From NCBI GenBank assembly GCA_022841375.1, contig JALHRQ010000015.1, positions 12,306 to 76,305 on the forward strand: 64,000 nucleotides of DNA. The letters are read 5' to 3'. Under the pieces are notes generated by a model that was not told where the DNA came from, did no database searches, and was given only the letters and a program-made list of their open reading frames with translations. Shown here in pieces: positions 4,703 to 53,529 of the stretch (position 1 is its first letter; each line of letters opens with the position of its first letter). The translations under genes were made by a program, and so were the position numbers. Source of the DNA: Burkholderiales bacterium (GTDB lineage Bacteria > Pseudomonadota > Gammaproteobacteria > Burkholderiales > SG8-41).

Positions 4703-4788
4703 GGCGTATATCTCTATGTTATTGTTTTTAAACGATATTTATTGAAAGCGGCGAAAGGGGGAATTCGCCAACAGGCTTTCAATCTACC

Positions 4789-4818
4789 AAAAAAAAGGGC
4801 TGTCGCCAGCCCTTTTTT
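4789..4818 (-). terminator. intrinsic terminator after rplI
   Basis: A8-GGGCTG-tcgc-CAGCCC-T6. On the minus strand the stem is followed by a U-run, about 35 nt downstream of the rplI stop. Confidence 0.75.
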
Positions 4819-4850
4819 GGTCGTGCAGAAAAACGCTTTTGATTCAGTGC

Positions 4851-5303
4851 TTACGCAGCCTCGCCAAGCACCGAGACGGTGATTGAAACCACCACATCGG
4901 CGTGCAGCGCCACTTTGATCGGGTAGTCACCGATCGTTTTAAGCGGGCCTTCCGGCATGCGGATGGACGCTTTCGACACTTCGAAGCCCTGCTTTTTCAG
5001 CGCTTCGGAGATGTCGCTGTTGGTGACTGAACCGAACAGCTTGCCGTCGACGCCGGCCTTTTGGGTGATCTGAACCATCAGGCCTTCGAGCTTGGCGCCT
5101 TTTTCCTGTGTCTGGGTCAGCATTTCAGCGTGTGCCTTTTCCAGCTCGACGCGGCGCTTTTCGAAGTCAGCCAGGTTCGCCGTGGTGGCGCGTTTGGCTT
5201 TGCCCTGCGGGATCAGGAAATTGCGGGCATAACCGTCCTTGACGCGAACCACGTCGCCGAGCGTGCCCAGGTTGATGACTTTCTCAAGAAGAATGATTTG
5301 CAT
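4851..5303 (-). CDS. rplI: 50S ribosomal protein L9
   Basis: [37 protein letters not shown] chose the internal ATG at 5303; the longer ORF to 5369 overlaps rpsR. Confidence 0.93.
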
Positions 5304-5313
5304 GTCAGGCCTC

Positions 5314-5613
5314 TCAGTGCAGGTCGGTGTAAGGCAGCAGCGCGAGGAAGCGCGCGCGCTTGACCGCAATCCCCAACTGGCGCTGGAAGCGCGCCTTGGT
5401 GCCCGTGATGCGGGCGGGGATGATCCTGCCGTTTTCGTTGATGAAATCCTTCAGCAGGCTGATGTCTTTGTAATCAACCTGTTTGATGCCTTCAGCCGTG
5501 AAGCGGCAGAACTTGCGACGACGAAACAGGGCATTGCCCTTTTTGCGTCCGTCCTTGCCTTTGCCTTTGCCGAATTTACCCTTACCGCCGCTGTTTCCGC
5601 CCATTCGTGCCAT
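5314..5613 (-). CDS. rpsR: 30S ribosomal protein S18
   Basis: [21 protein letters not shown]...[13 protein letters not shown]. Sits in the rpsF-priB-rpsR-rplI operon context. Confidence 0.93.
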
Positions 5614-5627
5614 GTGCGTTTCCTTTT

Positions 5628-5924
5628 CTAAATCAGTTCCATGTTCGTAACGTGCAGGACAATCTGCCTGCTCATGCGATGCTTGCGGTTGAGAAAACCC
5701 TGCACATCCATCCCGCTGCCCTGCCGTATTCCGGCAATCCGTGCTGCCAGTTCGCCGGTGGCTTTCGCCGCCATCTCGAACTCCACCTGCCTTTGCTGTC
5801 CTGCCTCGGTTTGTTCCGAGGCATGGGCCAGCGTAAATTCCACTACAGGCAGGCCGGCGGGTGTGTGACGCAAGGGTTCAACCGTGGCCAGGACTCCAAT
5901 CAGCCTGACCGTATTCCGGCTCAC
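5628..5924 (-). CDS. priB: primosomal replication protein N
   Basis: A 98-aa OB-fold-sized protein located between rpsF and rpsR, the canonical priB position. Confidence 0.85.
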
Positions 5925-6317
5925 TTACGCTGCGCTCTCCGCTTCAACTGCGGCCACAGGAGCTGCCGGCCTGGCATCATCGGTAGTCGGGCGCGCGCGC
6001 TCTTCCCGCATCATCGGCGACGGGGTCGTGACGGCCTCGTCCATGCTGACGGTCAGATGGCGCAGCACTGCGTCGTTGAACTTGAAAGCGTGTTCGAGCT
6101 CGAGCAGCGTCTCGTTGTCGCACTCGATGTTCATCATCACGTAGTGTGCTTTGTGCAGCTTCTGGATCGGGTAGGTCAACTGGCGGCGGCCCCAGTCTTC
6201 GAAACGATGGATCGCGCCTTTGCGGCCGGTGATCAGCTGACGATAACGGTCAACCATCGCCGGCACCTGCTCGCTTTGGTCCGGATGGACAATCAAAACG
6301 ATCTCGTAATGTCGCAT
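5925..6317 (-). CDS. rpsF: 30S ribosomal protein S6
   Basis: [25 protein letters not shown]...; first gene of the S6 operon. Confidence 0.93.
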
Positions 6318-6343
6318 TTAATATCTCCTTGTGGGCTGTTGGG

Positions 6344-6499: not shown

Positions 6500-8128
6500 T
6501 TAATAAACAAGCACCAGGCTGCCATTCAGCCGCATGTCGTCGGTTTGGCGGGTGCCGTGGGCCTTGAGGATCTGCGCCAGGTCGAAACGCAGGCTGACGG
6601 TTTTGCCGTAAGTCAGGCGCATACCGATGCCGGTGCTGGCCAGGTATTTGCCTGCCTGCTCGCTAGGCGTCGGATCATTGCGGTAAACGTTGCCAAAATC
6701 GTAAAAGCCGACCAGCCGGGTGCGCCATTTGTCGCTCATGCCCAGATTGTCGGAAAGATTCGGCGTATACATCTCGAGTTGCGCGGCATAACCGTAGTCG
6801 CTCGAGGCTTCGCGCGGCAGATAACCGCGCACGGTATCCATGCCGCCGATACCAAACTGCTCACCAGGGATCAGCAGATCACGTGTGAATTGGCCCACGT
6901 ATGCGATACGCCCCTGCCATTCGTTGCGGAAGGCGTGCGAAAACGTCGCGCCGTAACGCAGGATGTTGTAATCCGCTTTTGCGCCCTGACGAACACACAA
7001 TCCATCTGTATGCCGCGGACACTGAAAATCCTCTTTGCTGCCATCATTGCCCCCGGGAATATTATGCGACAGTGCGGCATTAAAACTCAGCTCACTCGCC
7101 GTCATCCGCAGTAGGCCGGCATAACCCAGCGATACCGGATGCACGGTGATGTCCGGTACAAAACCGATACCCAAAAGGGTCACGTTGTTCTGATAGGCGC
7201 GGTAATCGAGACCGAAACTCAGTTTTTGTTCAATGTCCTTCCACTTCTGCGGGAAGTAGTTCCATTTGGCACCGAAGATCGAACCCTTGCCGCTGACATT
7301 GAACAGGCCCGACACCGTACCCGAATCAACATCGGAATAACCGCCGAACATTTCCAGCGTGCTGTTAAGCCGATAGTACGGAATCTTGTAACCCAGCCCG
7401 TAAATCGCGACCTGGTCCAGATTGGTCGGCGACGTCACATACTGTGCGGTGAACGAATGGTCACGGTCAAACAGGTTGGTGTGCTGAAAGCCCACACCCA
7501 GGCGCAGGTAACCCGTATCGGAAGTGCCGGTATCGTCCAGCGTTGCTATCAATCGCCACGGCCGGTCATCGGTGACCCGCACGTTAACGTCCACCAAACC
7601 TTCGTTTTCACCAGAGCGCAGCAATACGTTCGACTGCTTGACCGGATGCTCTGCGGCAATCTGCAGATTGCGCGCGATGTTATTGGAGTTGGGCGTCTCG
7701 CCCTCTTTCACCGCCGGCAGCGAACGACGGACGTTCTGGGTGCTGAAATACTGGTTGCCTTCGACATTCACCTTGCCGATTTTCGGCTGGTTGATGTTGA
7801 AGCGGACGATGCCGCGGGTGATGTCCTGCTCGGGCAATTGAACCTGAATTACACCATAGCCGCGATCGCGATAGGCCACTTCCAGCGTTTCCAGCGCGCG
7901 CTGAACGTCGCTGAAGTCCTTGTCTTTGCCGGTGAACGGCTTGACCAGGCGCTGGACCGTTTCAGTGCCGAGGATGTTGTCGCCAATGACTTCAAAGCGA
8001 TCGATGTTGAATTTGGGAGCCGGAATCACCACTTCCTGAGCGGTTTCCTGCGCAGCAACCCACGCCGGAGAGACCAAGAGAATTGAGGCTAACGCCGCAT
8101 GCGCTATCGAAGATTTGTTATAAGTCAT
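6500..8128 (-). CDS. two-partner-secretion outer-membrane transporter (TpsB; ShlB/FhaC/HecB family)
   Basis: 542 aa. Signal peptide (...SPAWVAAQE), a POTRA-like N-terminal part (FNIDRFEVIGDNIL...), and a beta-barrel-like C-terminal part ending in an aromatic residue. It is immediately downstream of a TpsA gene. Confidence 0.88.
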   Translation of the reverse strand: MTYNKSSIAHAALASILLVSPAWVAAQETAQEVVIPAPKFNIDRFEVIGDNILGTETVQRLVKPFTGKDKDFSDVQRALETLEVAYRDRGYGVIQVQLPEQDITRGIVRFNINQPKIGKVNVEGNQYFSTQNVRRSLPAVKEGETPNSNNIARNLQIAAEHPVKQSNVLLRSGENEGLVDVNVRVTDDRPWRLIATLDDTGTSDTGYLRLGVGFQHTNLFDRDHSFTAQYVTSPTNLDQVAIYGLGYKIPYYRLNSTLEMFGGYSDVDSGTVSGLFNVSGKGSIFGAKWNYFPQKWKDIEQKLSFGLDYRAYQNNVTLLGIGFVPDITVHPVSLGYAGLLRMTASELSFNAALSHNIPGGNDGSKEDFQCPRHTDGLCVRQGAKADYNILRYGATFSHAFRNEWQGRIAYVGQFTRDLLIPGEQFGIGGMDTVRGYLPREASSDYGYAAQLEMYTPNLSDNLGMSDKWRTRLVGFYDFGNVYRNDPTPSEQAGKYLASTGIGMRLTYGKTVSLRFDLAQILKAHGTRQTDDMRLNGSLVLVY

Positions 8129-8277
8129 TGTTTTTAAACAAATTAGTTATATAAAGCCCATGCTGCAGGCAATCCCCGTCAATTTCAACTTGCGTCCCAA
8201 TTACGCAATCAAGTATTGATAATTATGGCAGATTTACCGCGGAAATAGCGCACTACACCACGCATGCGCCGTCCACC

Positions 8278-8311
8278 AAAAAAAAAACCGGCTGCAAGAG
8301 CGCCGGTTTTT
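8278..8311 (-). terminator. intrinsic terminator between tpsA and tpsB
   Basis: aaaaaccggc-tgcaagagc-gccggttttt. On the minus strand the stem is followed by a run of about 10 T, 42 nt downstream of the tpsA stop. Confidence 0.65.
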
Positions 8312-8352
8312 GCTCCGGCCGCATCGATTGCAAACCGGAGTGTCCCTGCTTT

Positions 8353-11300
8353 TTATTTACCGCAGATCGGGAGATCCTTTTTCTTGTCCTTGTTTTTTTC
8401 GTCTTCCGACTCCATCGCCCCGGTCGACTTCTGCTCTTCCGGCGGCTTGGTGGCCTGGTTCATGGCAACAATCAGCGTGTCGGTCGGCGGCGAAATGGAC
8501 GCGCCGGTGTAAGTCACCATCATGGTGTCACCCAATACAGCCGGACTTCCGTTGGTAAAGAAGCCAGTTTCCGTCAACGCATCATAGAGTGCACCGCTCA
8601 CACCATTGACGGTGAAGCCTCCGCTGGTCAAACCGGTCAGCACCAGCGTGATGGTATCCACCGATCCAGCCTCAATACGCCCCGGGGTCGACAGGGTGCC
8701 ATTAACAAAGACGGAACCACCGACCTGCATCATCACGTCAGGACCGCCGATAATCGACGCATTGTCGACCACCACGTTGCCGCCGGTTTTGACCGTGGTA
8801 TTGCTGGAGTAAGTACCCAGAGTGGTATCGCCATAACCATCGTTGGAATACACGCGGAGATTGCCACCTGCAACAGCGACTGTATTGGCATTGCCATAGG
8901 CATAGTTGTTATAACCCCCGGTGCCGCCAATGTTCAGATTGCCGCCGGCATTGAGCAGAAGGTTTCCTCCTGCATGCACGTATCCGTAATACCCGGTGAT
9001 ATTAATGTCGCCATTAGCCATCAGCGACAGGTCACCACTGGCGTAACCTTCAGCACCGTCAACAGTCAGAGAGCCAGTTGCTCCAATCGCAGCGTTGCCA
9101 TTGGGTGCATATACAGCGTTATAGTTGTAGAGGCGCAGATTACCGGTATTGATTATGCCGATGTCGCCGTTGTAAGAAGAGACACGAAGTTCATTAACCA
9201 GCGTTTCGAGTGGATTGGTAATGGAACCCACACTACCGGAAGCATAGAGTTGCGCTCGTGGCGCCAGGATATTGATCCCCGCATTGCCGTCGATAATCTG
9301 ACCGTTGTTGCTGTCGATATAGATTGAACCGTCGGCGCTCAACTGGCCCAGCGTAATGTCGCCGTTAGCATAGGCGTACACTTCTCCCAGGTAGTAACCG
9401 CCGCCACTCGCAGAAACATTACCCGTAGACGTATTGATCGTTCCGTAAGGAGAATAAAGCGAGACATAGCCTTCACCGCCATCAGGACCGCTTCGACCCA
9501 CAGCCGAGACCGTGGCATTGGCAATGGTCACATTTGAGGAAGTTCCGTACGTATACAAGTAGATGTTCGCCTCACCGCCGGCCCAGGTATATTCCAGACC
9601 CTCCGGACCGGTCACGGCTGCCCCAGCCGTAGCAGTAAGGTTACCGTTGACAGTGAGTGGGCCGTCGCTTGTTAACGTAATGTACGCATTGCCTCCGTAG
9701 CTGCCGCCCGACAAGCCGCCCTGCCCGCCGGCGCCGCCGGTCATGCCGATGGACCCGGTACTCCCCACCGTAAAGGGGTCGCCGGAAGGAGCGTAGTAGT
9801 AATAGTTACTCAAATATAAGCTGGCATTTCCCCCCCGACCGCCGGAAGCCCCGTCGCCTCCGGAACCGCCTAGTCCGGTGATAGAGCCCTGAACCAGAAC
9901 TGGACCCCTGACGTCAGCATAGATCTGCGCATATCCGCCGGCGCCACCTGTGCCATAGCTACCGACACCATGCCCACCATCACCGCCGGTGACGGCAATC
10001 GAGCCGGTGCTGTTTAGCGAGAAACCGCCCACATTGGCATAGACGTAGCCATAACCGCCATCGCTCCCATCAACATCCCACTCGTTGTTGATACCACCAC
10101 CGCCCTTGCCGCCCTGGGAAACAATCGCACCGCCGATTTCCAGAGCGCCGGTGCTGGTCAGATTGACGTTGGCATCTCCGCCGCTACTTGTGCCGTATTC
10201 ATCATTTCCGGAATTGCCGGCGATTGCGGTAATCGATCCCGCGCTGGTCACGCTAATGCTGTTGCTGCCGTCAACGTTGACCGTTGAATCGCCGCCCTCA
10301 GCATAAGCCTCGAGGCCGATTCCAAGCGCATGACCACCCGTCGCCGAAACCGGCGCGGCAATATTGACAACGCCGCCATACAGATTGACGGTCGCGCTGC
10401 CGCCATAATCACCATCATTCCCGTCAGCACCTTTGGCTTCAACCGCACTGTTGACGGCAAGGGTTCCGTCATAGGCGGTCAGGGTGACGGCTGCATTGGC
10501 ACCGGAACCTTCACCCAGCGCACGTACATTCTTGCTGACGGTCAGATTGCCGGTCGTGACAGCAATATCAACCACGGCATTTGAAGAAGTGGCCGTCACA
10601 CCATCAACACCGCCGACACTGCCGATCGTCAAGGACTGGCTGTTGTTGAAACGGAACTCGTTCGCCGAACCGGCCAGCGCATTGACCGCATTGGCTTCCG
10701 TCAGCGAAACATTGCCTGCCACGCTCTTGGCCAGCAACTGATTGGCGGTAATGATCCCTGTCGCAGTCTGAGTGATGTCACTGCCGGCAACCAGATGCAC
10801 ACTTCCACTACCCATGTTGATAGGTGCATTGATCTGGATAAAACCGCCGATTCCCACAGTCGGTCCGGGCGGCAAACTTGGCGCTGTTGCTGGGGTCAGA
10901 GGATCGCCATTCCAACCCGCATACAGCAATGCCCCTCCGGAGGTTGTGTTGCTGATCGGGCTATTAACCTCAATATTATTGTGCGATGCGAGCCGGAGAT
11001 ACGACTGCTTGTCCCAAGACACTGAGTCATTAACATAAATGCTGCCGGCTGACCCGGTAGTGGCGATATCAACGTTAGTTGGTGTTCCGATGATGGTTCC
11101 GGCACTGCCTGAATAGTCAGCTCCCAAAGCCAGCGACAATGAATACCCTGACATATTGCCGCCAGTGGCCGCAATGACAAAATCATCTGGATCGATCAGC
11201 CAGCGTCCAGCCTGACCACCGCCACTGCCCGCCGCGCTAACCCTCGCACTGTCCGCGATATTGACCGTCGCCGCTGAAGTCTCAATAAAACCACCACTAC

Positions 11301-12258
11301 CCGGCGCACCCGATGCAATCGCCGACGCGTCCATCTTGCCGGCGACCTGCGTAACCCCATCGGCCATGCCCGACAGCGCGACAATTTCACCTCCGCTGGT
11401 GCCACGCGCGCTCGTCACGCTGCCGGCTTCCAGATCGGTGCGTTTGGTCGACTTGAGCATGATGCGGCCGCCCTCGGCAACCGCGCTGTCCGCATTCAAC
11501 ACGCCACCCTGCTTGATCAGCCCGGCATAGATGCCGATGCGACCGGCATCAGCGACCACGCTGCCCAGATTGCGCGCTTCGTTGTCACCCGCCTGGATTT
11601 CAACGCGCAGATTCGGCGTGCCGGGATTGACCAGTTCCACGCTGTTGCCCGCTGCCAGCACCACTTCGCCCCCCGGGCTGGTGATGATGCCGTTGTTGGT
11701 GACGGCGTTGCCGACCATATAGACCGGGCCGCCCGAGGCGTTGATCGAGCCCTGATTCACCACCGAACCGGCGCCAGCGCCGTCGGTGAAGTTCATGCGT
11801 CCGGCGAGGAAGTCGGCGTTGGACATGTTCAGCGTCGATGCCACCAGACCGGCGACGTTGATCTGTGAGCCGGCACCAAACAGGATGCCGTTGGGATTGA
11901 TCAGGAACACACGGCCGTTGGACTGCAACGCGCCGAGGATGGCGGAAGGATCCTGCCCGACGACGCGGTTCAACACCGCAGACAGCGCCGAAGGCTGGAT
12001 GAATTTGGTCAACTCGTTGACGCCGATCGAGAACGAACCCCAGTTGATGATCGCGTTATGGCTGTTGGTGACGTTTAGGATGCTGCCCGCCTGTGCGAAG
12101 CTGGCAGTGCCGTGCACCACCGTGGGTACGGTCGGGTTGGCCAGCACGGCGCTGCTGAAGCAGGCGGCGACGGCGAGTGCGGCGGCCTTTGGACGCAGGC
12201 CGAATGCCGGTTGAATGATAGAATTAGGCGTGTTATGCGTAGCGGTTTTTTTGTTCAT
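8353..12258 (-). CDS. TpsA exoprotein with filamentous-haemagglutinin-type TPS domain and a Gly/Tyr-rich beta-solenoid-like passenger
   Basis: 1301 aa with an extended signal peptide. TPS-domain motifs HNAIINWGSFSIG and FLINPNGILFG, then GGFIETSA ... WLIDPDDF. No recognisable C-terminal toxin. Confidence 0.9.
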   Translation of the reverse strand: MNKKTATHNTPNSIIQPAFGLRPKAAALAVAACFSSAVLANPTVPTVVHGTASFAQAGSILNVTNSHNAIINWGSFSIGVNELTKFIQPSALSAVLNRVVGQDPSAILGALQSNGRVFLINPNGILFGAGSQINVAGLVASTLNMSNADFLAGRMNFTDGAGAGSVVNQGSINASGGPVYMVGNAVTNNGIITSPGGEVVLAAGNSVELVNPGTPNLRVEIQAGDNEARNLGSVVADAGRIGIYAGLIKQGGVLNADSAVAEGGRIMLKSTKRTDLEAGSVTSARGTSGGEIVALSGMADGVTQVAGKMDASAIASGAPGSGGFIETSAATVNIADSARVSAAGSGGGQAGRWLIDPDDFVIAATGGNMSGYSLSLALGADYSGSAGTIIGTPTNVDIATTGSAGSIYVNDSVSWDKQSYLRLASHNNIEVNSPISNTTSGGALLYAGWNGDPLTPATAPSLPPGPTVGIGGFIQINAPINMGSGSVHLVAGSDITQTATGIITANQLLAKSVAGNVSLTEANAVNALAGSANEFRFNNSQSLTIGSVGGVDGVTATSSNAVVDIAVTTGNLTVSKNVRALGEGSGANAAVTLTAYDGTLAVNSAVEAKGADGNDGDYGGSATVNLYGGVVNIAAPVSATGGHALGIGLEAYAEGGDSTVNVDGSNSISVTSAGSITAIAGNSGNDEYGTSSGGDANVNLTSTGALEIGGAIVSQGGKGGGGINNEWDVDGSDGGYGYVYANVGGFSLNSTGSIAVTGGDGGHGVGSYGTGGAGGYAQIYADVRGPVLVQGSITGLGGSGGDGASGGRGGNASLYLSNYYYYAPSGDPFTVGSTGSIGMTGGAGGQGGLSGGSYGGNAYITLTSDGPLTVNGNLTATAGAAVTGPEGLEYTWAGGEANIYLYTYGTSSNVTIANATVSAVGRSGPDGGEGYVSLYSPYGTINTSTGNVSASGGGYYLGEVYAYANGDITLGQLSADGSIYIDSNNGQIIDGNAGINILAPRAQLYASGSVGSITNPLETLVNELRVSSYNGDIGIINTGNLRLYNYNAVYAPNGNAAIGATGSLTVDGAEGYASGDLSLMANGDINITGYYGYVHAGGNLLLNAGGNLNIGGTGGYNNYAYGNANTVAVAGGNLRVYSNDGYGDTTLGTYSSNTTVKTGGNVVVDNASIIGGPDVMMQVGGSVFVNGTLSTPGRIEAGSVDTITLVLTGLTSGGFTVNGVSGALYDALTETGFFTNGSPAVLGDTMMVTYTGASISPPTDTLIVAMNQATKPPEEQKSTGAMESEDEKNKDKKKDLPICGK

Positions 12259-45183: not shown

Positions 45184-47712
45184 TTAAGAGGGCCGGACCG
45201 CAGTGCCTCGGACCAGCGGCAATTCGAAATAAAACGTTGAGCCCTGCCCCTCGACCGAATCAAAACCAATCTCGCCGTTCATGTGCTCGATCAGCGCCTT
45301 GCTGATGGCAAGCCCCAGTCCGGTGCCGCCCTTGCGCCGGGTATTGGAATTATCCGAACGCTCGAACCGCTGGAAGATCTGTCCGCGGAACTTCTCCGGA
45401 ATGCCGGGACCGTGGTCGCGCACATTAACCCTGACCGCATCGCCGCGCGCTTCCGCGCTGACCTCGACTACAGCCTGCGCTGGTGAAAACTTGGCGGCAT
45501 TGGAAATCAGGTTGGTCAGTACCTGCATCAATCGGCCGGAATCGGCCGCTACATCAAAATCATCGCCCGGCAACAAACTCAGCCTGACGTTGTGCAGTTC
45601 GGCATACGGCATGTTGATGTGCACCGCCTTCTCCAGCAATTCCCGCAGGTGTTGCGGCCTCAGGTCTATCGTCATCTGGCCTGAACCGATCTTCTCGATA
45701 TCCAGCACATCATTAATCAAGGAGGCGAGGCGCTCGCTGTTCTGCGAAGCCATGTCGATGAACCCTGCAACCTCGGGATCCAGGTTCTCTGCGGTCTCCC
45801 GGATCAGACTCAGCGAGCCGATGATCGCTGTCAGCGGTGTGCGCAGTTCGTGACTGACCGTGGCAATAAACTCGTTTTTCACACGTTCGATTTCCTTGCC
45901 GGCCGTGATGTCCGAGTTGGTGCCAACCAGCCGCAATGCCTTGCCCTCGGCATCGCGCTCGGTCACCTTGGCCCGACTCAGGATCCAGCGCCACTCGCCG
46001 TGCAAATTGCGCACACGGTGCTGCACCTCGTAAAACCGGGAATGCCCCTTGAGCACCTTGTCCAGACTCTCCTGCAACCGCGGCATGTCATCGCGATGCA
46101 CGATGGCATTCAGCGCCTTGACCGTAGTGACCGTTTCGACCTTGTCACCGCCCATGATCAGATTCCATTGCTCGCTCAGACGCACTTCGCCGGAACGGAT
46201 ATCCCAGTCAAACAACGCCAAGTTTGATCCATCCAGTGCCATGCCAAGGCGCTCTCGCCCCTTCATAAGGGCTTCAGTGGCGCGCCTGCTCTCGGTTACA
46301 TCCTCGACATTACCGACAAAACCGGTAATCTGGTTCTCCTCGCGAATCGCTGCGGCCCCAGCAGTCACCCAGATCACCGTACCGGCAGAATGCAGGAATC
46401 GGTAGGTAACCGTCATTTCGGATGCCCCTCCTGCGACTGCGGCAAGCCAGGCTTCGCGAACGCGATTCCGGTCATCAGGATGCACTGCGGCGAGCCAGCC
46501 ATCACCGACAGCTACTGCTGCGGAGAGCCCCGATAACGACTCATAACGCCGATTAACATATCTGTAACCGCCTTCGTTATCGGCACGAAAAATACCCAAC
46601 GGGGAAGCATCGTTCATCGCCTGCCATTCAGCCTCGCGGTGACGCACCTCAGTGGTCATTTTTCTAGCCAGGCTTACAGCGCGGCTGCGCGTGGACCAAA
46701 GGGACCAGAGCACCGCAAGCAGCATCAACTGAATGGCAAAACCACTGACCAATATCAACCGCGGTTTGTCGCTGCTCACGGTGGCCTCAAACTGCGGCGT
46801 CGAAGTCATGGATAAGGTCCACGGCACACCATTAATCAGAACTTGCATGGAACTGGAAAAACGCGGAGGCCCTGAAGACGCATCGGCCAGCATGGTCCGG
46901 TACAACAGCGCCTCCTCGGCCATACTCGTGCCGTCATAAACGGCGACGTCGATCTGCCACTCGTCGCCTAAGATCCGGCTGATCAGATTGCCGGCGCGGA
47001 ATGCGGCATAAACAACGCCCTGCGCCGCAATGACACGTTCGTCGCTGGTTCCGATTGCAGCGCCGCGACGATAGATCGGCATATACATGAGAAATCCGGA
47101 CTGCATATTCCGGTCCGTCTCCTGCACCAACGTGACCTTGCCCGTTAGGAAAGCCCGCCCGGACACAATGGCTTCCCGGATCGCAGAACTACGCACCGCA
47201 TCCGAATTCATGTCGAAACCGATGGCGCGGGCATTACGCTCGCTGGGCGGTTCAAGAAAATAAATGGGGTAGTATTCAGCGCTGTCTCTAGAAGGACGCA
47301 TCTCGTAAGAGGGGCCGATTTTCCGCTTGGCAACCGATTCAAACTGACCTTTCTGCCCGCTGGATACTTTCGGCGCATAGCCAATGCCCTGGATGCCGGG
47401 GTAGTACGACTCGATTTTCAGGCTCGTGTAGTAGCTGTTCCATTCCCCCTTTTCCACTGACTCCGAAGCTGCAAACAGCCCTGCCGCTCCACGCAGTACC
47501 TGCTCGTAATCAAGCATCCGGCCGCTGATTGCATTACGAATCTCGTTCGCATGGAAATTGAACCGTGTTCTGGCCTCTTGCTCGACATCAGCAATTGCAC
47601 TTTGCCAACTGACTATTACCAGCGCCGCCGGCAAAACAAGCGCGACCAAGACAACAAGGCCGTTAAGCAAAGGTTCTGGTAGTTCGATTCGTTCGAATCC
47701 AGCCTGCTTCAT
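45184..47712 (-). CDS. sensor histidine kinase: TM-CHASE-TM, two PAS domains, HisKA, HATPase_c (no receiver)
   Basis: 842 aa. CHASE-like periplasmic region ([25 protein letters not shown]...TGKVTLVQE), H-box SHELRTPL, G-boxes DHGPGIP and [10 protein letters not shown]. Confidence 0.9.
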
Positions 47713-49145
47713 CGCTCGACTCCTTTACCGAGTCCGCCAGGACCGCTCTGCCAACTCGCGCTGCGTGTCATCTCGCCCCAGCGTGCCTTCGAACGAAACA
47801 TCCACAGCAGCAATCCCCACAGACGCCAGGCCGAATTAAGCTGGCGGTAACCAATGTTTTCAAGCACCACGACAAGCACCAGCACGGCGATCTGGTGCGG
47901 TTTCGGGTAAATATGGAAGGAAAGTTCCTCGAGCAGCAGTGAACTGACCGACAATACCAGTCCGAAACTGAAGACCACCAGCATGAAAGTCAAGAACGCA
48001 TCCAGCGCCATCAGCCCGGAAGCAAAAGCCATGATCATAAACACATAACCCGCCACCTCGATCAGCGGTCCCAGCCATTCAAACACCGCCATGAACGGAA
48101 AAGCCAGCCAGCCAACTGCACCGCCGCGGCGATGAAACAGCAGGCTGATATTCATGGTCAGGCTCTCCGAAAGGCCGCGCTGCCAGCGCACCCGCTGATT
48201 CTTCAGCACACGCAGTGTCTCCGGCGCCTCCGTCCAACACACCGGATCGGGCACAAAAACGATGCGGTAGGGAATATTGCGGGTGCGATGCAGGCGATGC
48301 AGCCTGACAATGAGTTCCATATCCTCGCCCATGGTGTCGGTTCGGTATCCGCCGGCCTCGACCACGACATCCTTGCGGAAAACCCCGAATGCGCCGGAAA
48401 TGATCAGCACCGCATTCAGCGGCGTCCACCCCAGCCGGCCGAACAGGAAAGCGCGCAGATACTCGACAATCTGCAGCAGCGCCAGTGGATTACGCGGCAA
48501 ACCGACACGGGTCAGAAAGCCGCTGTCGACCGTGCAGCCGTTGGCAATCCGTACCGTGCCACCGGAAGCAATGGTGCGCGGATCCTCCAGGAAGGGTTCC
48601 ACCACCCTGCGCAGGCTGACGCGCTCCAGCACCGAATCCGCATCCACACCGCAAAACAGCGGGTAACGCGCAGCATTGATGCCGGCATTCAGTGCATCGG
48701 CTTTGCCGCCGTTGTCCTTGTCGATGACGCGGAGCGATGGATACGTTTTCGAACGATAGATTCCGCGCACTGGCTTCACCGCAAGCCGCTGCCAATAGGC
48801 TTCCGGAAACAGCTCCAGGCTGAATTCGCGGCGCAACGCATCCATCGTGCCGTCCTTCGAACCGTCGTTGATGACGATCACCTCGTACTCGGGATAATCC
48901 AGTTGCAGCATCGAACGCACCGAGCTGGCGATCGTCGCCTCTTCGTTATAGGCAGGCACCAGCACCGACACCGGGAGCTCAAATCCCGAGATGCCCCGCG
49001 GCATGTCGTCCAGGCTGTGTGCCTCGACATAACGCTTCAGGCCACCCAGCGACAGCAGGTTCAGCATCAAGTAACCCATGTTGACGCCGATGAAATAAAG
49101 TATGAAAAACCACTGTGCTCCGACGATCCAGTCACTGACGCTCAT
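47709..49145 (-). CDS. membrane-embedded processive family-2 glycosyltransferase (PgaC/BcsA/NodC-like synthase)
   Basis: 478 aa with TM helices at both ends. Motifs VPAYNEE, NDGSKD, GKADALN, GVDADS, GEDMEL, QRVRWQRG (QxxRW). Confidence 0.88.
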   Translation of the reverse strand: MSVSDWIVGAQWFFILYFIGVNMGYLMLNLLSLGGLKRYVEAHSLDDMPRGISGFELPVSVLVPAYNEEATIASSVRSMLQLDYPEYEVIVINDGSKDGTMDALRREFSLELFPEAYWQRLAVKPVRGIYRSKTYPSLRVIDKDNGGKADALNAGINAARYPLFCGVDADSVLERVSLRRVVEPFLEDPRTIASGGTVRIANGCTVDSGFLTRVGLPRNPLALLQIVEYLRAFLFGRLGWTPLNAVLIISGAFGVFRKDVVVEAGGYRTDTMGEDMELIVRLHRLHRTRNIPYRIVFVPDPVCWTEAPETLRVLKNQRVRWQRGLSESLTMNISLLFHRRGGAVGWLAFPFMAVFEWLGPLIEVAGYVFMIMAFASGLMALDAFLTFMLVVFSFGLVLSVSSLLLEELSFHIYPKPHQIAVLVLVVVLENIGYRQLNSAWRLWGLLLWMFRSKARWGEMTRSASWQSGPGGLGKGVER

Positions 49146-50230
49146 GTCGCACGAGCCTCCGCAATCGCCTGGGTCAGGATATCGGCTGCGTAGGGGTCAT
49201 CCAGCGTGCCGCGAATCTTCTCCAGATCCTCGATGCGGGTCCCCGGCAGCGCCAGCAGCGCCCGCGCCGCGCGGTAACGCACCCACCAGTGCCCGTCGCT
49301 GAGTTTATCGAGCAGCAGCGGCCGGTCAGTGGCATCGCCGGTCCTGCCCAGCACCCGAATTGCATTCGCCCGCACAAACCACGCTTCGTGCCCGGTACGG
49401 GCACGCACGATATCCAGATCACGGGGATCCTGTACCAGGCGCAATGCCGAGGCGATCAATTCGGGATCCTGCACCTCCCGCGCAATCCGCCCGGCGACCG
49501 CTGCCACGCGTTCGGTGTGCGCCACTTCCATCATGCGCAGCAGTCGCGCCACCTGGCGTTCCCCGCCCTCGGCGCGCACCGCGGCTTCTGCCGCGGAAAT
49601 CAGCAGCAGCGTGACCCGGTCGGGACCGGCGTCTTTGAGCATGCTCGCCACCCGGGACAGCGGCCAGTCTTCCCGGGCCGCCATGACCGTGACCAGCCAG
49701 GGCAATGTCGAGGAGGCATCAATATCGAGCAGCGCGCGGGCGGCGACCATGGACAACATCGGCGACGGGTCGGCCACCAGCGCCCGCAGTTCATGCCATT
49801 GCGTGCGGTCGCCCAGATGACCGAGTGTCATCACCGCGATGAGACGTTCGCGCAAATCCCCCGTCTTCATCATTTCGCGGGCGACGTCCTCGAGATGCAT
49901 GGCTCCAGCCAGCGCCTCCAGATTGGCCCGCGTATTGCCGACCAGTGATTCGTGGTGAAAATTCCAGATCTTGAGAAAATGGTAGCGCAGATTCTCCGGT
50001 ACCTTCGGTAAAGTAACCGGCACTCCAAACACACATTCAGCGAGCAGCGGCTGCCATTGGGCTTCATGTATGCGTTCGCGACGCCGCCGGATCAACATAC
50101 GGATGCGCAGCATGAACACGGCGACCAGCATCAGCAGCGCGCAGGTGATTGCAGCGATGCCAATCAGGAAAACCGCATTGAGCAGCGGATCCTGCGGCAA
50201 CCAGATCTCCAGCATGCCAGGCTCAGGCAC
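49142..50230 (-). CDS. membrane-anchored HEAT-repeat protein
   Basis: One N-terminal TM helix (LLNAVFLIGIAAITCALLMLVAVFML) then repeated HEAT/PBS-lyase-like units (e.g. WFVRANAIRVLGRTGD, WWVRYRAARALLAL). GTG start at 50230, or ATG at 50215. Confidence 0.75.
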   Translation of the reverse strand: MPEPGMLEIWLPQDPLLNAVFLIGIAAITCALLMLVAVFMLRIRMLIRRRRERIHEAQWQPLLAECVFGVPVTLPKVPENLRYHFLKIWNFHHESLVGNTRANLEALAGAMHLEDVAREMMKTGDLRERLIAVMTLGHLGDRTQWHELRALVADPSPMLSMVAARALLDIDASSTLPWLVTVMAAREDWPLSRVASMLKDAGPDRVTLLLISAAEAAVRAEGGERQVARLLRMMEVAHTERVAAVAGRIAREVQDPELIASALRLVQDPRDLDIVRARTGHEAWFVRANAIRVLGRTGDATDRPLLLDKLSDGHWWVRYRAARALLALPGTRIEDLEKIRGTLDDPYAADILTQAIAEARAT

Positions 50231-50270
50231 CGGGCACCGGGGATAAACTGTGATCCACGCGCAAAGGCGG

Positions 50271-51104
50271 TCAGAAACTGCGACGAAGGCCGAGCTGCAG
50301 ACCCTGCCGGCGATAAAGGGTGCCCTGTTCGTGCTGGATCAAGTCGTAGGTCATTGCCCACGAAGGGGTAAACCAGTGCTGGCCGCTGACCGACCAGCTC
50401 TGCACATCTGTAGCAACCACGCCACGGGGCGGACCGACATTTTCGACCTCGCGGCCGTTGGTATAAGACATGCCCACGTTACTGCGATCATCGTAGTAAT
50501 AACTCAGTTGCAGCCGGTGACTGGACGCCGAAGAAGCACCTTCGGGACGCCCGGAATACAGCGTATAGGCGCCACGGAAATTACCCCAGTAACGCTCGGC
50601 CAGCACCGACGCCACATTGCTCGCGGTCGAGGTGTATTCGCTGTGTCGAAGCCCCAGGCCGAGACCCCATCCGCCCTTGAAACTTTTCTGCAGGAAGCCG
50701 TAAACCGAACCTTGCGCCAGCACTTCATGAGTTGGACTATAGCTACCCTCGACAACTGCGTTCCAGGTCTCCCCCAGCGGGAAATAAAGGCCCGCATGCG
50801 CCTCGCTGTCCTTCAGGTTAAAGCGCTCTGTTGCACGCAGTCCGCCGTAAACCGTGTTGCGGTCTCCCAGTTTGCGGCTGCCGAGCAGATAGGTGTTGGT
50901 CCAGTCGGAAAAATTATTGGTCAGCGACTCGCGGCCATAGCCAAACTCCAGCGCATTTACCGGCAACCGCAAACCCGTTGCCGCACTTTGAGGCCGCAGA
51001 GTGGCCACATCGTCCGACGACGGCTGTGCACCGGCGTTCAGCGCGGCCAGCAACACAAACGCAGCGCCCAAAAACGGCCATCCTTTGGCGACAGTCTTCT
51101 TCAT
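50271..51104 (-). CDS. small outer-membrane beta-barrel protein (YaiO-family-like)
   Basis: 277 aa with a signal peptide (...LAALNAGAQP), alternating beta-strand pattern and a C-terminal ...GLRRSF. Family assignment is by resemblance only. Confidence 0.6.
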   Translation of the reverse strand: MKKTVAKGWPFLGAAFVLLAALNAGAQPSSDDVATLRPQSAATGLRLPVNALEFGYGRESLTNNFSDWTNTYLLGSRKLGDRNTVYGGLRATERFNLKDSEAHAGLYFPLGETWNAVVEGSYSPTHEVLAQGSVYGFLQKSFKGGWGLGLGLRHSEYTSTASNVASVLAERYWGNFRGAYTLYSGRPEGASSASSHRLQLSYYYDDRSNVGMSYTNGREVENVGPPRGVVATDVQSWSVSGQHWFTPSWAMTYDLIQHEQGTLYRRQGLQLGLRRSF

Positions 51105-51520
51105 TTGACTTCCTTCACCAGACGCTTGACCCGGGAACGCAGTTCATCCGGCTTGAACGGCTTGACCATGTAATCCGCCGCCCCCGAGTCAAGGGCGCGG
51201 ACGATGTCCTTTTCCTGCGACTTGGCAGTCAGCATCAGCACCGGCACGTTTTCCCAGCCATCCTTGGCACGAATCGTCGCCAGCAGTTGATAGCCATCCA
51301 CAAACGGCAGCATCACATCCAGCAAAACCAGCGCCGGCGGCGCGCCATGCGCGATCAGATCCTGCGCCACACGGCCGTCACTGGCCAGTTCAACCTTGAA
51401 GCCCTCGCGCTCAAGGATAAACCGCAGCAAATAGGCAATCTGGTCGTCGTCTTCAACGACGAGCGCAATTCTCGGATTTGGGCCTGTCACTGGGCTCTCG
51501 GTTTTGCATGTTGTTGACAA
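51101..51520 (-). CDS. single-domain response regulator (CheY-like receiver only)
   Basis: VVEDDD, phospho-acceptor LLDVMLP, MLTA, VKPF. No output domain. Start ambiguous (TTG 51520 or GTG 51490). Confidence 0.88.
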   Translation of the reverse strand: MSTTCKTESPVTGPNPRIALVVEDDDQIAYLLRFILEREGFKVELASDGRVAQDLIAHGAPPALVLLDVMLPFVDGYQLLATIRAKDGWENVPVLMLTAKSQEKDIVRALDSGAADYMVKPFKPDELRSRVKRLVKEVK

Positions 51521-51583
51521 CGGGGTAACAGCGTGCCCCGTTTTGCAAATATGATACTACTTTAACCCCTTGCTGAGCTTCCT

Positions 51584-51829
51584 TTGCTGCACTGGTGGAC
51601 GGCGCGCGACCAGATCATCTGGAAAATAGAACGCGCAGGCACCCGGCGCAAACTGCTGCAGGAATCACCGCAAACGATCAGTGACCTGACGCTGCAGTTG
51701 CCGAAAGACCGGTTGATCAATACCAATCCCGAAAATGTCACTTCCATTGCCGCGCCACAGTCCTTGTTGATCAAAAAAACCAGCGGCAGCCTGCTGCTGG
51801 AATTTGAAACCGCCGGAACAACGCCTTGA
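51584..51829 (+). CDS. possible small protein (81 aa), unknown function, TTG start
   Basis: Strong G/C bias at third codon positions by eye. Its TGA overlaps the TTG start of the next ORF (cTTGAtt). No ATG/GTG start and no clear Shine-Dalgarno, so this call is uncertain. Confidence 0.3.
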   Translation: MLHWWTARDQIIWKIERAGTRRKLLQESPQTISDLTLQLPKDRLINTNPENVTSIAAPQSLLIKKTSGSLLLEFETAGTTP

Positions 51830-53529
51830 TTTCCTTATCCTACATCCTTCCCTGGATGCTATTGCTCCTTACAGCCCCGTCTTCAGCGGCCTGGCTCGGC
51901 GTCTGCCCGGGTACGCCGCAACAAGCCGACATCAAAATACTCGACACCCTGCTCAAACCCGCCGGCACCACGGCCAGCATCGTCGCCGCAGACAACCGGC
52001 TTCCGGACTGCGAGATGACTGAATTGCCGCTGACCGTCGAACAGCTGCGGTGGTCGAAAATGCTCAACCGCAGGGAAGCGGATGTCCTGTCGGGCGGCAT
52101 CATCATCAAAAGCGCCCGCGGTGAATCGCACACCACAGCGCCGCAGGAAATCGTGCCTTTGCAGGACGATAAACCCGCGCCGGCATCGACGCCGTTGGCG
52201 ACGGAATTACTGGCGCATTTGCAGGCCACCGTCTTCGGCGCTGAAGCTCGCGCGACCGTGAAACAGGACGCCGCGGGCATTCGCCTCGATTGCGCGCCCG
52301 GCAATGCACCCGCCGGTGCCCTGCTCGGCAGCGCGGTCGGTCTGCGCCTGCCGGCCGGCGCCGTACTCGCACTGACACTGGCGACAGAGACCAAAGGCAC
52401 ATTCCGCGTGGGTGTTGCCGACACGCAGCGCGAAAAAATCGGTGAATCGCTGACACTGGGCACGATCAATCCCGGTATGCCTGAAGCGGCCTTTGCCCTG
52501 CCCTCCACACTCGACAATACGGCGTGGCGGTTCTGGGTACTGGAATGCCCGGCATCGGCAGCGCGACTGGCCGTCCGCTCAATGCGGCTGGAAGCCCGCT
52601 TCTCGGGACCGTTGCCGCACCGTGCGCTGTGGGTCTGGCAACCATCAGCCTGGCAGACCAATATTTCGGCAACCACAACACTGCTGACCGAACACGGTGC
52701 CGACACGCTGTTCATCACCGTGCCATTGACCGCCGGCAATACCACTGTCGCAGAACCGGCGGCGCTGGAACGTTTCGTAGCGCATGCCTCCGCGCTCGGT
52801 ATCAAGGTATGGGCCGTTGCCGGTGATCCGCGTGCCGTGTTGCCGAAGGAACGTGATCAATTTGCCGTGATGGCCCGCGCCTATGCCGCATACAACAGCA
52901 CAGCGGCGCGGCGCGGCCGGCTGTCCGGCCTGCAACTCGATATCGAGCCTTATCTCAACAGCGGCTATCAACTCGACACCGAAGACTGGCTGGCAGCCTA
53001 TCTGGATACTCTGTCCCGGGTGCGCACGCAGGCGAAGATGCCGCTGGATGTGGCGGTGCCGTTCTGGTGGGGACGCCAGCGCTATCGTAACGGCCTGTTT
53101 CTCGACCATCTGGGGGCGCACGTTGAAGTGGTCTCGGTGATGAATTACCGCACCGACCGGCAGCAGCTGATCGATCTCGCCGAACCGTTTCTCGACTGGG
53201 GCACGCGCGCCAAAAAAACTATTCGTATCGGCATCGAAGCCGGCCCGATCCCGGATGAGTCGCTGCATGTATTCCGCAACAGCACCCGTGGCGATTTGTG
53301 GCTGGTGCCACTGGGCGCCAATACCTTGATACTGTCGCTCGATGCGGCGCAGGCCAATCCTGCGGGCAGCGCGTATGCCTATTCCCATACCATCAACCGC
53401 CAAGGCAGCGACACCACCTTCCGCGGCAACATCCGGGCGATGCAGAAATTATTGCCGGAACTGGAAATGATATGGCGCGCCTGGCCGTCGTTCGGCGGCA
53501 TCGCGCTGCACGGGCTCGACGCTGACTAG
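51826..53529 (+). CDS. secreted hypothetical protein, possibly with a glycoside-hydrolase-like (beta/alpha)-barrel C-terminal half
   Basis: 567 aa with an N-terminal signal-like segment (LPWMLLLLTAPSSAAW). The C-terminal half shows alternating strand/helix patterns (LFITVPL, KVWAVAGDP, LQLDIEPY, VAVPFWW, VSVMNYR). Start uncertain (TTG 51826 or ATG 51856). Confidence 0.7.
   Translation: MISLSYILPWMLLLLTAPSSAAWLGVCPGTPQQADIKILDTLLKPAGTTASIVAADNRLPDCEMTELPLTVEQLRWSKMLNRREADVLSGGIIIKSARGESHTTAPQEIVPLQDDKPAPASTPLATELLAHLQATVFGAEARATVKQDAAGIRLDCAPGNAPAGALLGSAVGLRLPAGAVLALTLATETKGTFRVGVADTQREKIGESLTLGTINPGMPEAAFALPSTLDNTAWRFWVLECPASAARLAVRSMRLEARFSGPLPHRALWVWQPSAWQTNISATTTLLTEHGADTLFITVPLTAGNTTVAEPAALERFVAHASALGIKVWAVAGDPRAVLPKERDQFAVMARAYAAYNSTAARRGRLSGLQLDIEPYLNSGYQLDTEDWLAAYLDTLSRVRTQAKMPLDVAVPFWWGRQRYRNGLFLDHLGAHVEVVSVMNYRTDRQQLIDLAEPFLDWGTRAKKTIRIGIEAGPIPDESLHVFRNSTRGDLWLVPLGANTLILSLDAAQANPAGSAYAYSHTINRQGSDTTFRGNIRAMQKLLPELEMIWRAWPSFGGIALHGLDAD

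Follow-up and report, generated by a model that had tools for sequence, protein, structure and literature searches.

A dedicated response regulator and a membrane-anchored HEAT-repeat protein accompany a family-2 glycosyltransferase in a widespread gene cluster that resembles synthase-dependent polysaccharide secretion systems

Synthase-dependent exopolysaccharide systems, such as those for cellulose, poly-N-acetylglucosamine (PNAG), alginate, Pel and Nfr, underpin biofilm formation. To our knowledge, all systems of this type with worked-out regulation (Bcs, Pga, Pel, alginate and Nfr) are gated by cyclic di-GMP (c-di-GMP), and every well-studied example has a periplasmic hydrolase or lyase. 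The porins that export polysaccharide in several of these systems (PgaA, BcsC, PelB and NfrA) are built of tetratricopeptide repeats (TPR) joined to a beta-barrel. Here we examined a gene cluster on a 64,000-nucleotide stretch of DNA from a Burkholderiales bacterium (GenBank assembly GCA_022841375.1, contig JALHRQ010000015.1, positions 12,306 to 76,305 of the forward strand), referred to as the window. The cluster encodes a processive family-2 glycosyltransferase (GT2) together with a membrane-anchored HEAT-repeat protein, an outer-membrane barrel and its own two-component pair, a composition proposed by an earlier sequence-only reading and borne out here in both domains and gene order. We judge it reasonably probable that the cluster is a synthase-dependent polysaccharide biosynthesis and export system belonging to a large unnamed family, in which a receiver and a HEAT-repeat protein are the hallmark added to a known class of synthase; polymer production, export and the action of the receiver are what we infer from the genes, domains, fold, topology and conservation described below. 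The features of the locus are as follows.

51101 to 51520, minus strand: single-domain CheY-like response regulator (RR), 139 amino acids (aa), TTG start, first gene of the unit, Response_reg as its only Pfam domain
50271 to 51104, minus strand: beta-barrel of the outer membrane, YaiO family (TIGR04390, PF19413), 277 aa; signal peptide and C-terminal Phe present
49142 to 50230, minus strand: membrane-anchored HEAT-repeat protein (HEAT_2), 362 aa, with the start probably at ATG 50215 (357 aa)
47709 to 49145, minus strand: predicted processive GT2 synthase-translocase, 478 aa, matching GT2 Pfam families
45184 to 47712, minus strand: sensor histidine kinase, 842 aa, CHASE-PAS-PAS-HisKA-HATPase_c (Pfam)
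51826 to 53529, plus strand: secreted glycoside-hydrolase-like protein, 567 aa, divergently oriented, candidate sixth component
51521 to 51825, no strand: divergent intergenic region between the RR and hydrolase-like genes, 305 bp, presumed from its position to be a shared promoter region

The five minus-strand genes were all found as open reading frames, closely packed between positions 45184 and 51520. The ATGA stop/start overlaps reported earlier at 51101-51104 (RR/barrel), 49142-49145 (HEAT/GT2) and 47709-47712 (GT2/kinase) were read directly in the sequence, and the domain calls for all five proteins were reproduced with Pfam and NCBIfam. The 40-nucleotide gap described between the barrel and HEAT genes (50231-50270) holds if the GTG at 50230 is used, but the gap is more likely 55 nucleotides. 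The closest HEAT homologs, P0121 (95% identity) and P0122, are both 357 aa in length and begin with MLEIW or MMEVW, corresponding to an ATG five codons downstream, and thus the HEAT protein probably starts at ATG 50215.

Conservation of this neighborhood, on which the sequence-only reading had staked its proposal, was surveyed with one genome per GTDB species. Relatives of the GT2 were detected in at least 591 GTDB species genomes, and the best 80 loci (46-79% identity to the window GT2; designated by L numbers) were examined. These loci came from Burkholderiales, Massilia, Noviherbaspirillum, Sterolibacterium and Pseudomethylobacillus; from Nitrospira, Stutzerimonas stutzeri, Halomonas, Rheinheimera, Stenotrophomonas, Luteimonas and Lysobacter; and from Bdellovibrio, Myxococcota, Acidobacteriota, Gemmatimonadota, Bacteroidota, Neomarinimicrobiota, Clostridia and metagenome-assembled genomes labelled as Actinobacteria. 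Loci with 3 kb or more of upstream sequence, 68 in all, were considered informative and were searched with profiles built from the cluster's own proteins. HEAT and GT2 genes were found together in 68/68 of these loci, with the HEAT gene immediately upstream of the GT2 gene in 61; the other seven were Nitrospira loci, in which about 5 kb of sequence that includes the barrel and hydrolase-like genes separates the RR-HEAT pair from the GT2 gene. A dedicated receiver was detected upstream of the HEAT gene at high score (receiver profile of at least 100 bits) in 55 of the 68 loci, to which the Nitrospira loci and, at lower scores, L071 and L084 can be added; only the five Xanthomonadales-type loci had none. 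The pattern extends over Proteobacteria, Nitrospirota, Acidobacteriota, Bacteroidota, Gemmatimonadota, Bdellovibrio and Clostridia. In most related loci the receiver gene sits directly upstream of the HEAT or barrel gene, often with overlapping or abutting reading frames.

The RR-YaiO-HEAT-GT2-kinase order of the window was repeated on unrelated contigs from Burkholderiales and others (L001, L002, L008 and L009). Related orders included RR-HEAT-GT2-hybrid kinase-TPR/YaiO-TPR-sulfatase in Vicinamibacterales, RR-HEAT-GT2-REC/GGDEF-kinase in Nitrospirae (L007) and HEAT-GT2-TPR/YaiO-sulfatase-GH-like (glycoside-hydrolase-like) in Xanthomonadales-type loci, the last also present in the complete Stenotrophomonas genome CP014274. 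The receiver-HEAT-GT2 trio persisted in monoderm lineages (Clostridium L088 and Clostridia L059). The arrangement is far beyond chance, as the gene order recurs in dozens of unrelated genomes, and its invariant core is receiver-HEAT-GT2, with the kinase sensor freely swapped between lineages. Mirror-tree distance correlations were r = 0.86 for GT2-HEAT (81 loci), 0.79 for GT2-RR and 0.67-0.86 across all pairs; these values mostly reflect shared ancestry, do not discriminate between partners and are at most supportive of co-inheritance.

Accessory genes were also observed in these loci. Many variants, including those of Stenotrophomonas, Vicinamibacterales and Bdellovibrio, carried an added membrane protein of about 790-820 aa of the sulfatase/alkaline-phosphatase superfamily (L056 12719-15148; L091 12882-15242; L006 14355-16814; L071 5501-7867). 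LtaS, OpgB and the cellulose phosphoethanolamine transferase BcsG are members of the same superfamily, an analogy that hints at decoration of the polymer with a phospho-substituent in the sulfatase-bearing lineages. In Nitrospira L021, an extra gene (4586-6325) encoding a 579-aa protein with a weak Glyco_hydro_42M-like match lies between RR-HEAT and TPR-YaiO and may be a further lineage-specific accessory.

The motifs of a processive synthase ascribed to the GT2 were all present, namely NDGS, DAD (D168/D170), GEDMEL (273-278) and QRVRWQRG (317-324). Residues D94, D168, D170, G273-E274-D275, Q317, R318, R320 and W321 were invariant or nearly so when compared to 12 distant and 45 closer relatives. 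An AlphaFold2 (AF2) model built from 45 sequences, with a predicted local distance difference test score (pLDDT) of 86.4 and a predicted template modelling score (pTM) of 0.86, revealed a GT-A core and interface helices. Transmembrane bundles had been proposed at both ends of the protein; in the model, four C-terminal transmembrane helices (342-449) were apparent, but the N-terminal element is a single long helix (residues 3-47). The top Foldseek matches of the model in the PDB were all membrane processive synthases, with Chlorella-virus and Xenopus hyaluronan synthases (TM-score of 0.65 or below) joined by BcsA, yeast and oomycete chitin synthases and plant CesA. Thus, the window GT2 has the motifs of the synthase-dependent exopolysaccharide class and, at the level of the model, the synthase fold with its own transmembrane channel.

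At the sequence level, BcsA was the best PDB match of the GT2 (E = 1e-8) and PgaC/IcaA its nearest characterized relative, with 27% identity to Escherichia coli PgaC over 347 aa (E = 1e-32). PgaC makes poly-beta-1,6-N-acetylglucosamine. Scores against the NCBIfam equivalog models fell below the cut-offs for the best match, PgaC_IcaA TIGR03937 (150.7 vs 422.3 bits), CelA TIGR03030 (52.6 vs 699.1) and NodC (33 vs 550). Because the protein falls below every characterized equivalog cut-off and is only 27% identical to PgaC, it is predicted to be a processive synthase-translocase of its own subfamily. Nor does it group with a characterized synthase whose partners are encoded elsewhere, as no equivalog level was reached and the partners travel with the GT2. 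The cytoplasmic C-terminal tail (residues 456-478, window 47709-47780) carries an invariant W456-G457-x-M459-x-R461-x-x-x-W465 motif and is the sole conserved part left unstructured in the AF2 model (pLDDT < 60). It may be a peptide on which the HEAT protein, the receiver or a ligand docks. As a separate observation, the GT2 of the metagenome contig L008 (9080-10594) loses alignment past QxxRW and is seemingly frameshifted, which is probably an assembly error or a pseudogene.

The HEAT protein (HEAT_2, 54.9 bits, Pfam) consists of one N-terminal transmembrane helix, an Arg-rich juxtamembrane stretch in which R42 is nearly invariant, and a HEAT solenoid. Its family comprised 1812 clusters (50% identity) at E <= 1e-30, and the best 150 were nearly all full-length, at about 350 aa; current annotation describes these proteins merely as 'HEAT repeat domain-containing protein'. 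In the longest family member checked, P0445 (508 aa), the transmembrane helix is preceded by a cleavable signal peptide and an extension of about 130 aa that lies in the periplasm. This extension and the positive-inside Arg cluster firmly predict an N-out/C-in orientation with a cytoplasmic solenoid. A Rosetta-stone check of longer HEAT-family members revealed none fused to a REC domain or to a GT2, and no HEAT homolog was found in a plasmid collection.

The RR has a Response_reg domain (residues 20-132, 98 bits) and no other Pfam domain. Its phosphorylation residues were all present, including the acidic pocket E23/D24/D25, the phospho-acceptor D68, T98 and K120. Among 72 cluster-linked receivers (L010-L089 plus the window), D68 was conserved in 67, with Glu in the other five; T/S98 was found in 70 and K120 in all 72. 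Glu in place of the phospho-acceptor Asp is a phosphomimetic-type substitution, which suggests that these five receivers may be constitutively 'on' variants. Since the RR has no output or DNA-binding domain, it would have to act through protein contact. The kinase is not hybrid and is composed of a transmembrane segment, a periplasmic CHASE domain (182.6 bits), a second transmembrane segment, PAS_3, PAS_4, HisKA (69.9 bits) and HATPase_c (104.3 bits), with the H-box SHELRTPL visible in the translation. With the residues and domains of a two-component pair in place, it is presumed to be the cognate partner of the RR. A kinase was found at the same position in L001, L002 and L008; other loci carry other sensors (CHASE3, PAS-only or GAF-hybrid) at varying positions, and a kinase was detected within 8 kb in at least 28 of the 68 informative loci. 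The sensor domains thus vary while the receiver-HEAT-GT2 output is constant, which is the signature of a modular effector.

The barrel scored 118.8 bits against TIGR04390 (cut-off 32) and 66.8 bits against PF19413 (cut-off 23.9). Its hydrophobic leader ends in AGA|Q, and its C-terminus (...RRSF) terminates in a Phe that was found in 13/13 aligned members; about 14 amphipathic strands were counted by eye. A profile of the barrel found no relative in the PDB (best match E = 0.27). Using an iterated profile to count YaiO domains within 9 kb of the GT2, we detected the domain in 55 of the 80 loci. It was not found within this distance in the monoderm loci L088 and L059, as expected for an outer-membrane component. 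In five phyla, TPR repeats in the N-terminal half were combined with YaiO in the C-terminal half of one protein (Stenotrophomonas L056, 420 aa; Vicinamibacterales L006, 389 aa; Nitrospira L021, 638 aa; Bacteroidota L067, 448 aa; Neomarinimicrobiota L083, 515 aa). The window barrel itself is without TPR repeats. Thus, the earlier statement that no Alg/Pel-type TPR porin is present stands for the window cluster, but relatives of the system do encode a TPR-YaiO equivalent. These fusions, which share the architecture of PgaA, BcsC, PelB and NfrA, are the best argument that the bare barrel of the window is an exit pore, and by this analogy we propose that it serves as the outer-membrane exit porin.

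The divergent gene at 51826-53529 lies beyond the coordinates of the sequence-only reading. Its product has a signal peptide followed by a C-terminal glycoside-hydrolase-like TIM-barrel domain of about 300 aa, and no match was found for it in Pfam or NCBIfam. The gene keeps its divergent position in L002 (60% identity over 308 aa, E = 1e-133), is directly downstream of the GT2 gene in Massilia and Noviherbaspirillum (L014, L017 and L019) and is also found within the Nitrospira and Xanthomonadales-type clusters. A family profile of 13 members matched PDB entry 10yv_A ('Putative GH97 from Cellulomonas fimi', E = 7e-20), the sole solved relative. D372 and E374 (in LDIEPY) and Y441/R442 were invariant and E471 (IGxE) nearly so; E374 of LDIEP and E471 of IGxE are reminiscent of the acid/base on strand 4 and the nucleophile on strand 7 in clan GH-A enzymes. 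The gene is a probable sixth component of the cluster, and its product is a candidate polymer-processing hydrolase. As an aside, the 10yv_A chain is 275 aa in length, GH97 enzymes are much longer, and the structure may represent a distinct, undescribed hydrolase family rather than GH97.

Taken together, these results are consistent with the following mechanism. The GT2, located in the inner membrane, would polymerize a nucleotide-sugar into a probably beta-linked glycan, as its fold and motifs suggest, and would push the chain through its own transmembrane channel in the manner of BcsA, PgaC and hyaluronan synthase. The HEAT protein, which co-occurs with the synthase throughout, may be its obligatory co-subunit or adaptor, in a role akin to that of PgaD, PelD/PelE or a PilZ module elsewhere. 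The CHASE-PAS kinase would sense a periplasmic or cytoplasmic cue and phosphorylate the RR, and the phosphorylated RR would bind the HEAT adaptor and/or the synthase and switch the synthase on post-translationally. Because the receiver-HEAT-GT2 linkage is invariant, a path from kinase to receiver to HEAT/synthase is the simplest mechanism. The YaiO barrel would be the exit of the polymer at the outer membrane, and the secreted hydrolase-like protein, by homology, may trim or release the polymer in the periplasm. A more far-reaching version, in which docking of the phosphorylated RR on the HEAT adaptor gates the synthase directly and without c-di-GMP, in diderms and monoderms of at least 10 phyla, such that the clusters form a sixth major family with YaiO proteins as its export porins, is tentative and in our estimate rather doubtful.

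Several observations weigh against this mechanism. When HEAT proteins from receiver-containing and receiver-less loci were compared, no receiver-specific conserved surface was found, and one position differed. Five Xanthomonadales-type loci had no linked receiver; the receiver is therefore not mechanically indispensable, as this variant keeps HEAT-GT2 without it. A single-sequence AF2 model of the barrel failed (pLDDT 31.6), and Gemmatimonadota, Myxococcota and Massilia loci without a nearby YaiO barrel were found. Finally, a REC-GGDEF-REC gene was located directly upstream of the HEAT gene in Gemmatimonadota, Neomarinimicrobiota, Myxococcota and others (L074, L063, L083, L069 and L080), a REC-GGDEF gene follows the GT2 gene in Nitrospirae L007, and an Hpt-REC-REC-GGDEF gene follows the kinase gene in L002. 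The last REC of the REC-GGDEF-REC proteins is the ortholog of the stand-alone receiver; the L083 protein has the arrangement Hpt-REC-GGDEF-REC, and that of Clostridium L088 is REC-REC.

The GGDEF genes bear on an alternative in which c-di-GMP is the proximal activator, with the receiver recruiting or activating a diguanylate cyclase, the HEAT protein and/or the GT2 tail acting as receptor, and the cyclase for the window encoded elsewhere. Apart from the REC-GGDEF-REC genes in several phyla and the GGDEF genes beside the L007 and L002 clusters, this alternative would account for the nearly invariant R42 in the Arg-rich juxtamembrane segment of the HEAT protein and for the invariant tail motif of the GT2 (W456-G-x-M-x-R461...W465), and it agrees with the c-di-GMP gating of the known regulated synthase-dependent systems. 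However, PilZ, GGDEF, GGDEF I-site, MshEN and GIL domains were all absent from the six window proteins by Pfam and NCBIfam, the receiver and HEAT protein hold the regulatory position that a c-di-GMP receptor domain takes in the synthase-dependent class, and no GGDEF gene lies beside the window cluster. Strong conservation of the receiver phospho-acceptor residues argues that phosphorylation itself matters, and an Arg-rich segment after a transmembrane helix is expected from the positive-inside rule alone. On balance we consider this alternative, the main rival to our reading, to be unlikely. The earlier claim that no c-di-GMP module is present is accurate for the window operon, but relatives fuse GGDEF to the dedicated receiver or encode it next door; because of this link, independence from c-di-GMP is not established, and the claim holds for the sequence and not yet for the mechanism.

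The receiver-less loci count in favor of a second alternative, in which the HEAT protein has a purely structural role as co-polymerase or stabilizer (like PgaD, IcaD or BcsB) and two-component control is indirect, for example with the receiver as a phosphate sink or as the input to another regulator, and does not involve contact with the synthase. Single-domain receivers are commonly phosphate sinks or branch points, Xanthomonadales-type loci retain HEAT-GT2 without a receiver, and the HEAT proteins display no receiver-specific conservation. By contrast, the receiver is tied to the HEAT gene across distant phyla whatever the kinase, which is unusual for a mere sink, and this linkage persists where no kinase was detected within 8 kb. 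A purely structural HEAT protein is, in our view, quite improbable. Least probable, and given little credence here, is that the GT2 makes a periplasmic or membrane-bound glycan (osmoregulated-glucan-like, a NodC-like oligosaccharide or a glycolipid) with the barrel and hydrolase-like protein serving some other envelope function: the 27% identity to PgaC below every equivalog cut-off, the GED in place of TED (the form found in NodC and chitin synthases), the small size of the barrel (277 aa) and its absence from some diderm loci would fit such a product, but the GT2 has QxxRW and the full channel-forming helix set, its closest folds are all polymer-translocating synthases, the barrel gene is translationally coupled within the operon and is fused to periplasmic TPR repeats in other phyla as in known export porins, and the secreted GH-like partner is recurrent. 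We thus retain the phosphorylation-controlled polysaccharide secretion system as the favored interpretation.

The setting of the cluster is that of ordinary core chromosome (DnaB, RNase R, Der, HflK, TilS and LeuC), with a G+C content of about 59% throughout. An Rfam scan of the locus detected no family, including no c-di-GMP riboswitch; promoter and terminator signals in the locus did not exceed chance, and a scan of 51521-51825 revealed no consensus sigma-70 promoter. An inverted repeat, AACGGGG-N10-CCCCGTT (7-bp stem), at 51518-51547 on the minus strand ends in the TTG start codon of the RR and could mediate start-codon occlusion or serve as an operator, the RR start codon itself being uncertain. 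Elsewhere in the window (6500-12258, minus strand), a two-partner secretion (TPS) pair was observed, composed of a 1301-aa protein with an N-terminal TPS secretion domain (8353-12258) and an adjoining 542-aa ShlB/FhaC-type transporter with POTRA and Omp85 domains (6500-8128, minus strand).

The family is widespread and apparently still unnamed; nitrifiers of the genus Nitrospira are among its carriers, as are Stutzerimonas stutzeri, Stenotrophomonas, Massilia, Halomonas and Bdellovibrio. Direct action of the receiver on the synthase complex would amount to a second, phosphorylation-based logic for the post-translational control of polymer secretion. If correct, the proposed mechanism would also provide a function for the orphan YaiO barrel family and for the family of transmembrane HEAT proteins. 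Full-text searches of the literature with combinations of YaiO, HEAT, GT2 and response regulator gave nothing relevant, and no description of a receiver-HEAT-GT2 system was found.

Comparison with described systems agreed with the earlier view that the gene set is no recognized named system, as the defining features of Pga, Bcs and Nfr are missing and Xag is set apart indirectly. Domains of PgaA/B/D and BcsB/C/Z were absent from the five genes by Pfam and NCBIfam, as had been noted, and the Pga partners were also absent from the flanking genes examined. Pga/Ica follows the same general logic as that proposed for the window cluster, its inner-membrane synthase being combined with a small partner in the membrane, a barrel in the outer membrane (TPR plus barrel in PgaA) and an enzyme that processes the polymer in the periplasm. 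It differs in that these parts are PgaD/IcaD, the PgaB/IcaB deacetylase and PgaA, whereas the window cluster has a membrane-anchored cytoplasmic HEAT solenoid and a YaiO barrel; Pga is controlled by c-di-GMP at the PgaC-PgaD interface, whereas the window cluster has a built-in receiver and kinase. Bcs and the hyaluronan synthases share the synthase fold and motifs, and Bcs further has a TPR-plus-barrel protein (BcsC) and a periplasmic hydrolase (BcsZ). By contrast, the window cluster has no PilZ, BcsB or BcsC, and its GT2 is 478 aa compared to about 730-870 aa. The Pel system of Pseudomonas aeruginosa offers a parallel in PelD and PelE, which are anchored in the inner membrane, carry cytoplasmic regulatory or alpha-solenoid domains, accompany the glycosyltransferase and take up the signal that activates it. 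Its glycosyltransferase, PelF, is however a soluble GT4, and c-di-GMP is bound by a degenerate GGDEF domain of PelD. Domains of the PelF/PelD type were absent from the window proteins.

Nfr is alike in its compact set of a GT2, a TPR/barrel outer-membrane protein and a small GH-like periplasmic protein, and most resembles the Xanthomonadales- and Nitrospira-type variants. The E. coli proteins differ in the C-terminal, c-di-GMP-binding MshEN domain of NfrB, the NfrA_C barrel (PF13283) of NfrA and the DUF4434 domain of YbcH, none of which is found in the window proteins. Identity with Nfr, the phage N4 receptor system, was considered and rejected, as the Pfam families differ and BLASTP comparisons of the GT2s and of the barrels were insignificant; NfrA does not end in a YaiO-type barrel, as NfrA_C is a separate Pfam family. 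Xag was the initial candidate match for the receiver-less HEAT-GT2-TPR/YaiO order of the Xanthomonadales type (Stenotrophomonas). The xagABCD genes of Xanthomonas form a GT2 operon for an unnamed polymer that is needed for biofilm formation (PMC3609779), and the XagB-like proteins of iron oxidizers are about 690 aa with a GspE_N/MshEN-type domain (PMC8250860). The latter architecture is that of NfrB. No Xanthomonas was found among the best 80 GTDB loci, though Stenotrophomonas, Luteimonas and Lysobacter were present, nor among the named HEAT homologs of a Stenotrophomonas query; Xoc xag primers had no match in the metagenome contigs, and the translated primers gave only noise against the loci. 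The published description and the absence of Xanthomonas matches argue indirectly that Xag is probably a different, NfrB-like system; possible identity with Xag is the main risk to the claim of novelty.

The only other place examined in which a YaiO barrel stands beside a membrane GT2 is the yaiO-yaiX-yaiP-yaiS locus of E. coli K-12 (L005, NC_000913 380069-384616), where YaiP has NDGS, DAD, VEDLDL and RRWRRW motifs and C-terminal transmembrane helices. Between this locus and the window cluster, the GT2s share 26% identity over 222 aa, and BLASTP gives no significant similarity for the barrels; in place of a HEAT protein and two-component pair, the E. coli genes encode an acyltransferase (yaiX, split by IS2 in K-12) and a deacetylase (yaiS). 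The E. coli locus has the appearance of a cryptic polysaccharide locus of the synthase type that is partly inactivated, and the position of yaiO beside yaiP hints at a general association of YaiO barrels with GT2 synthases.

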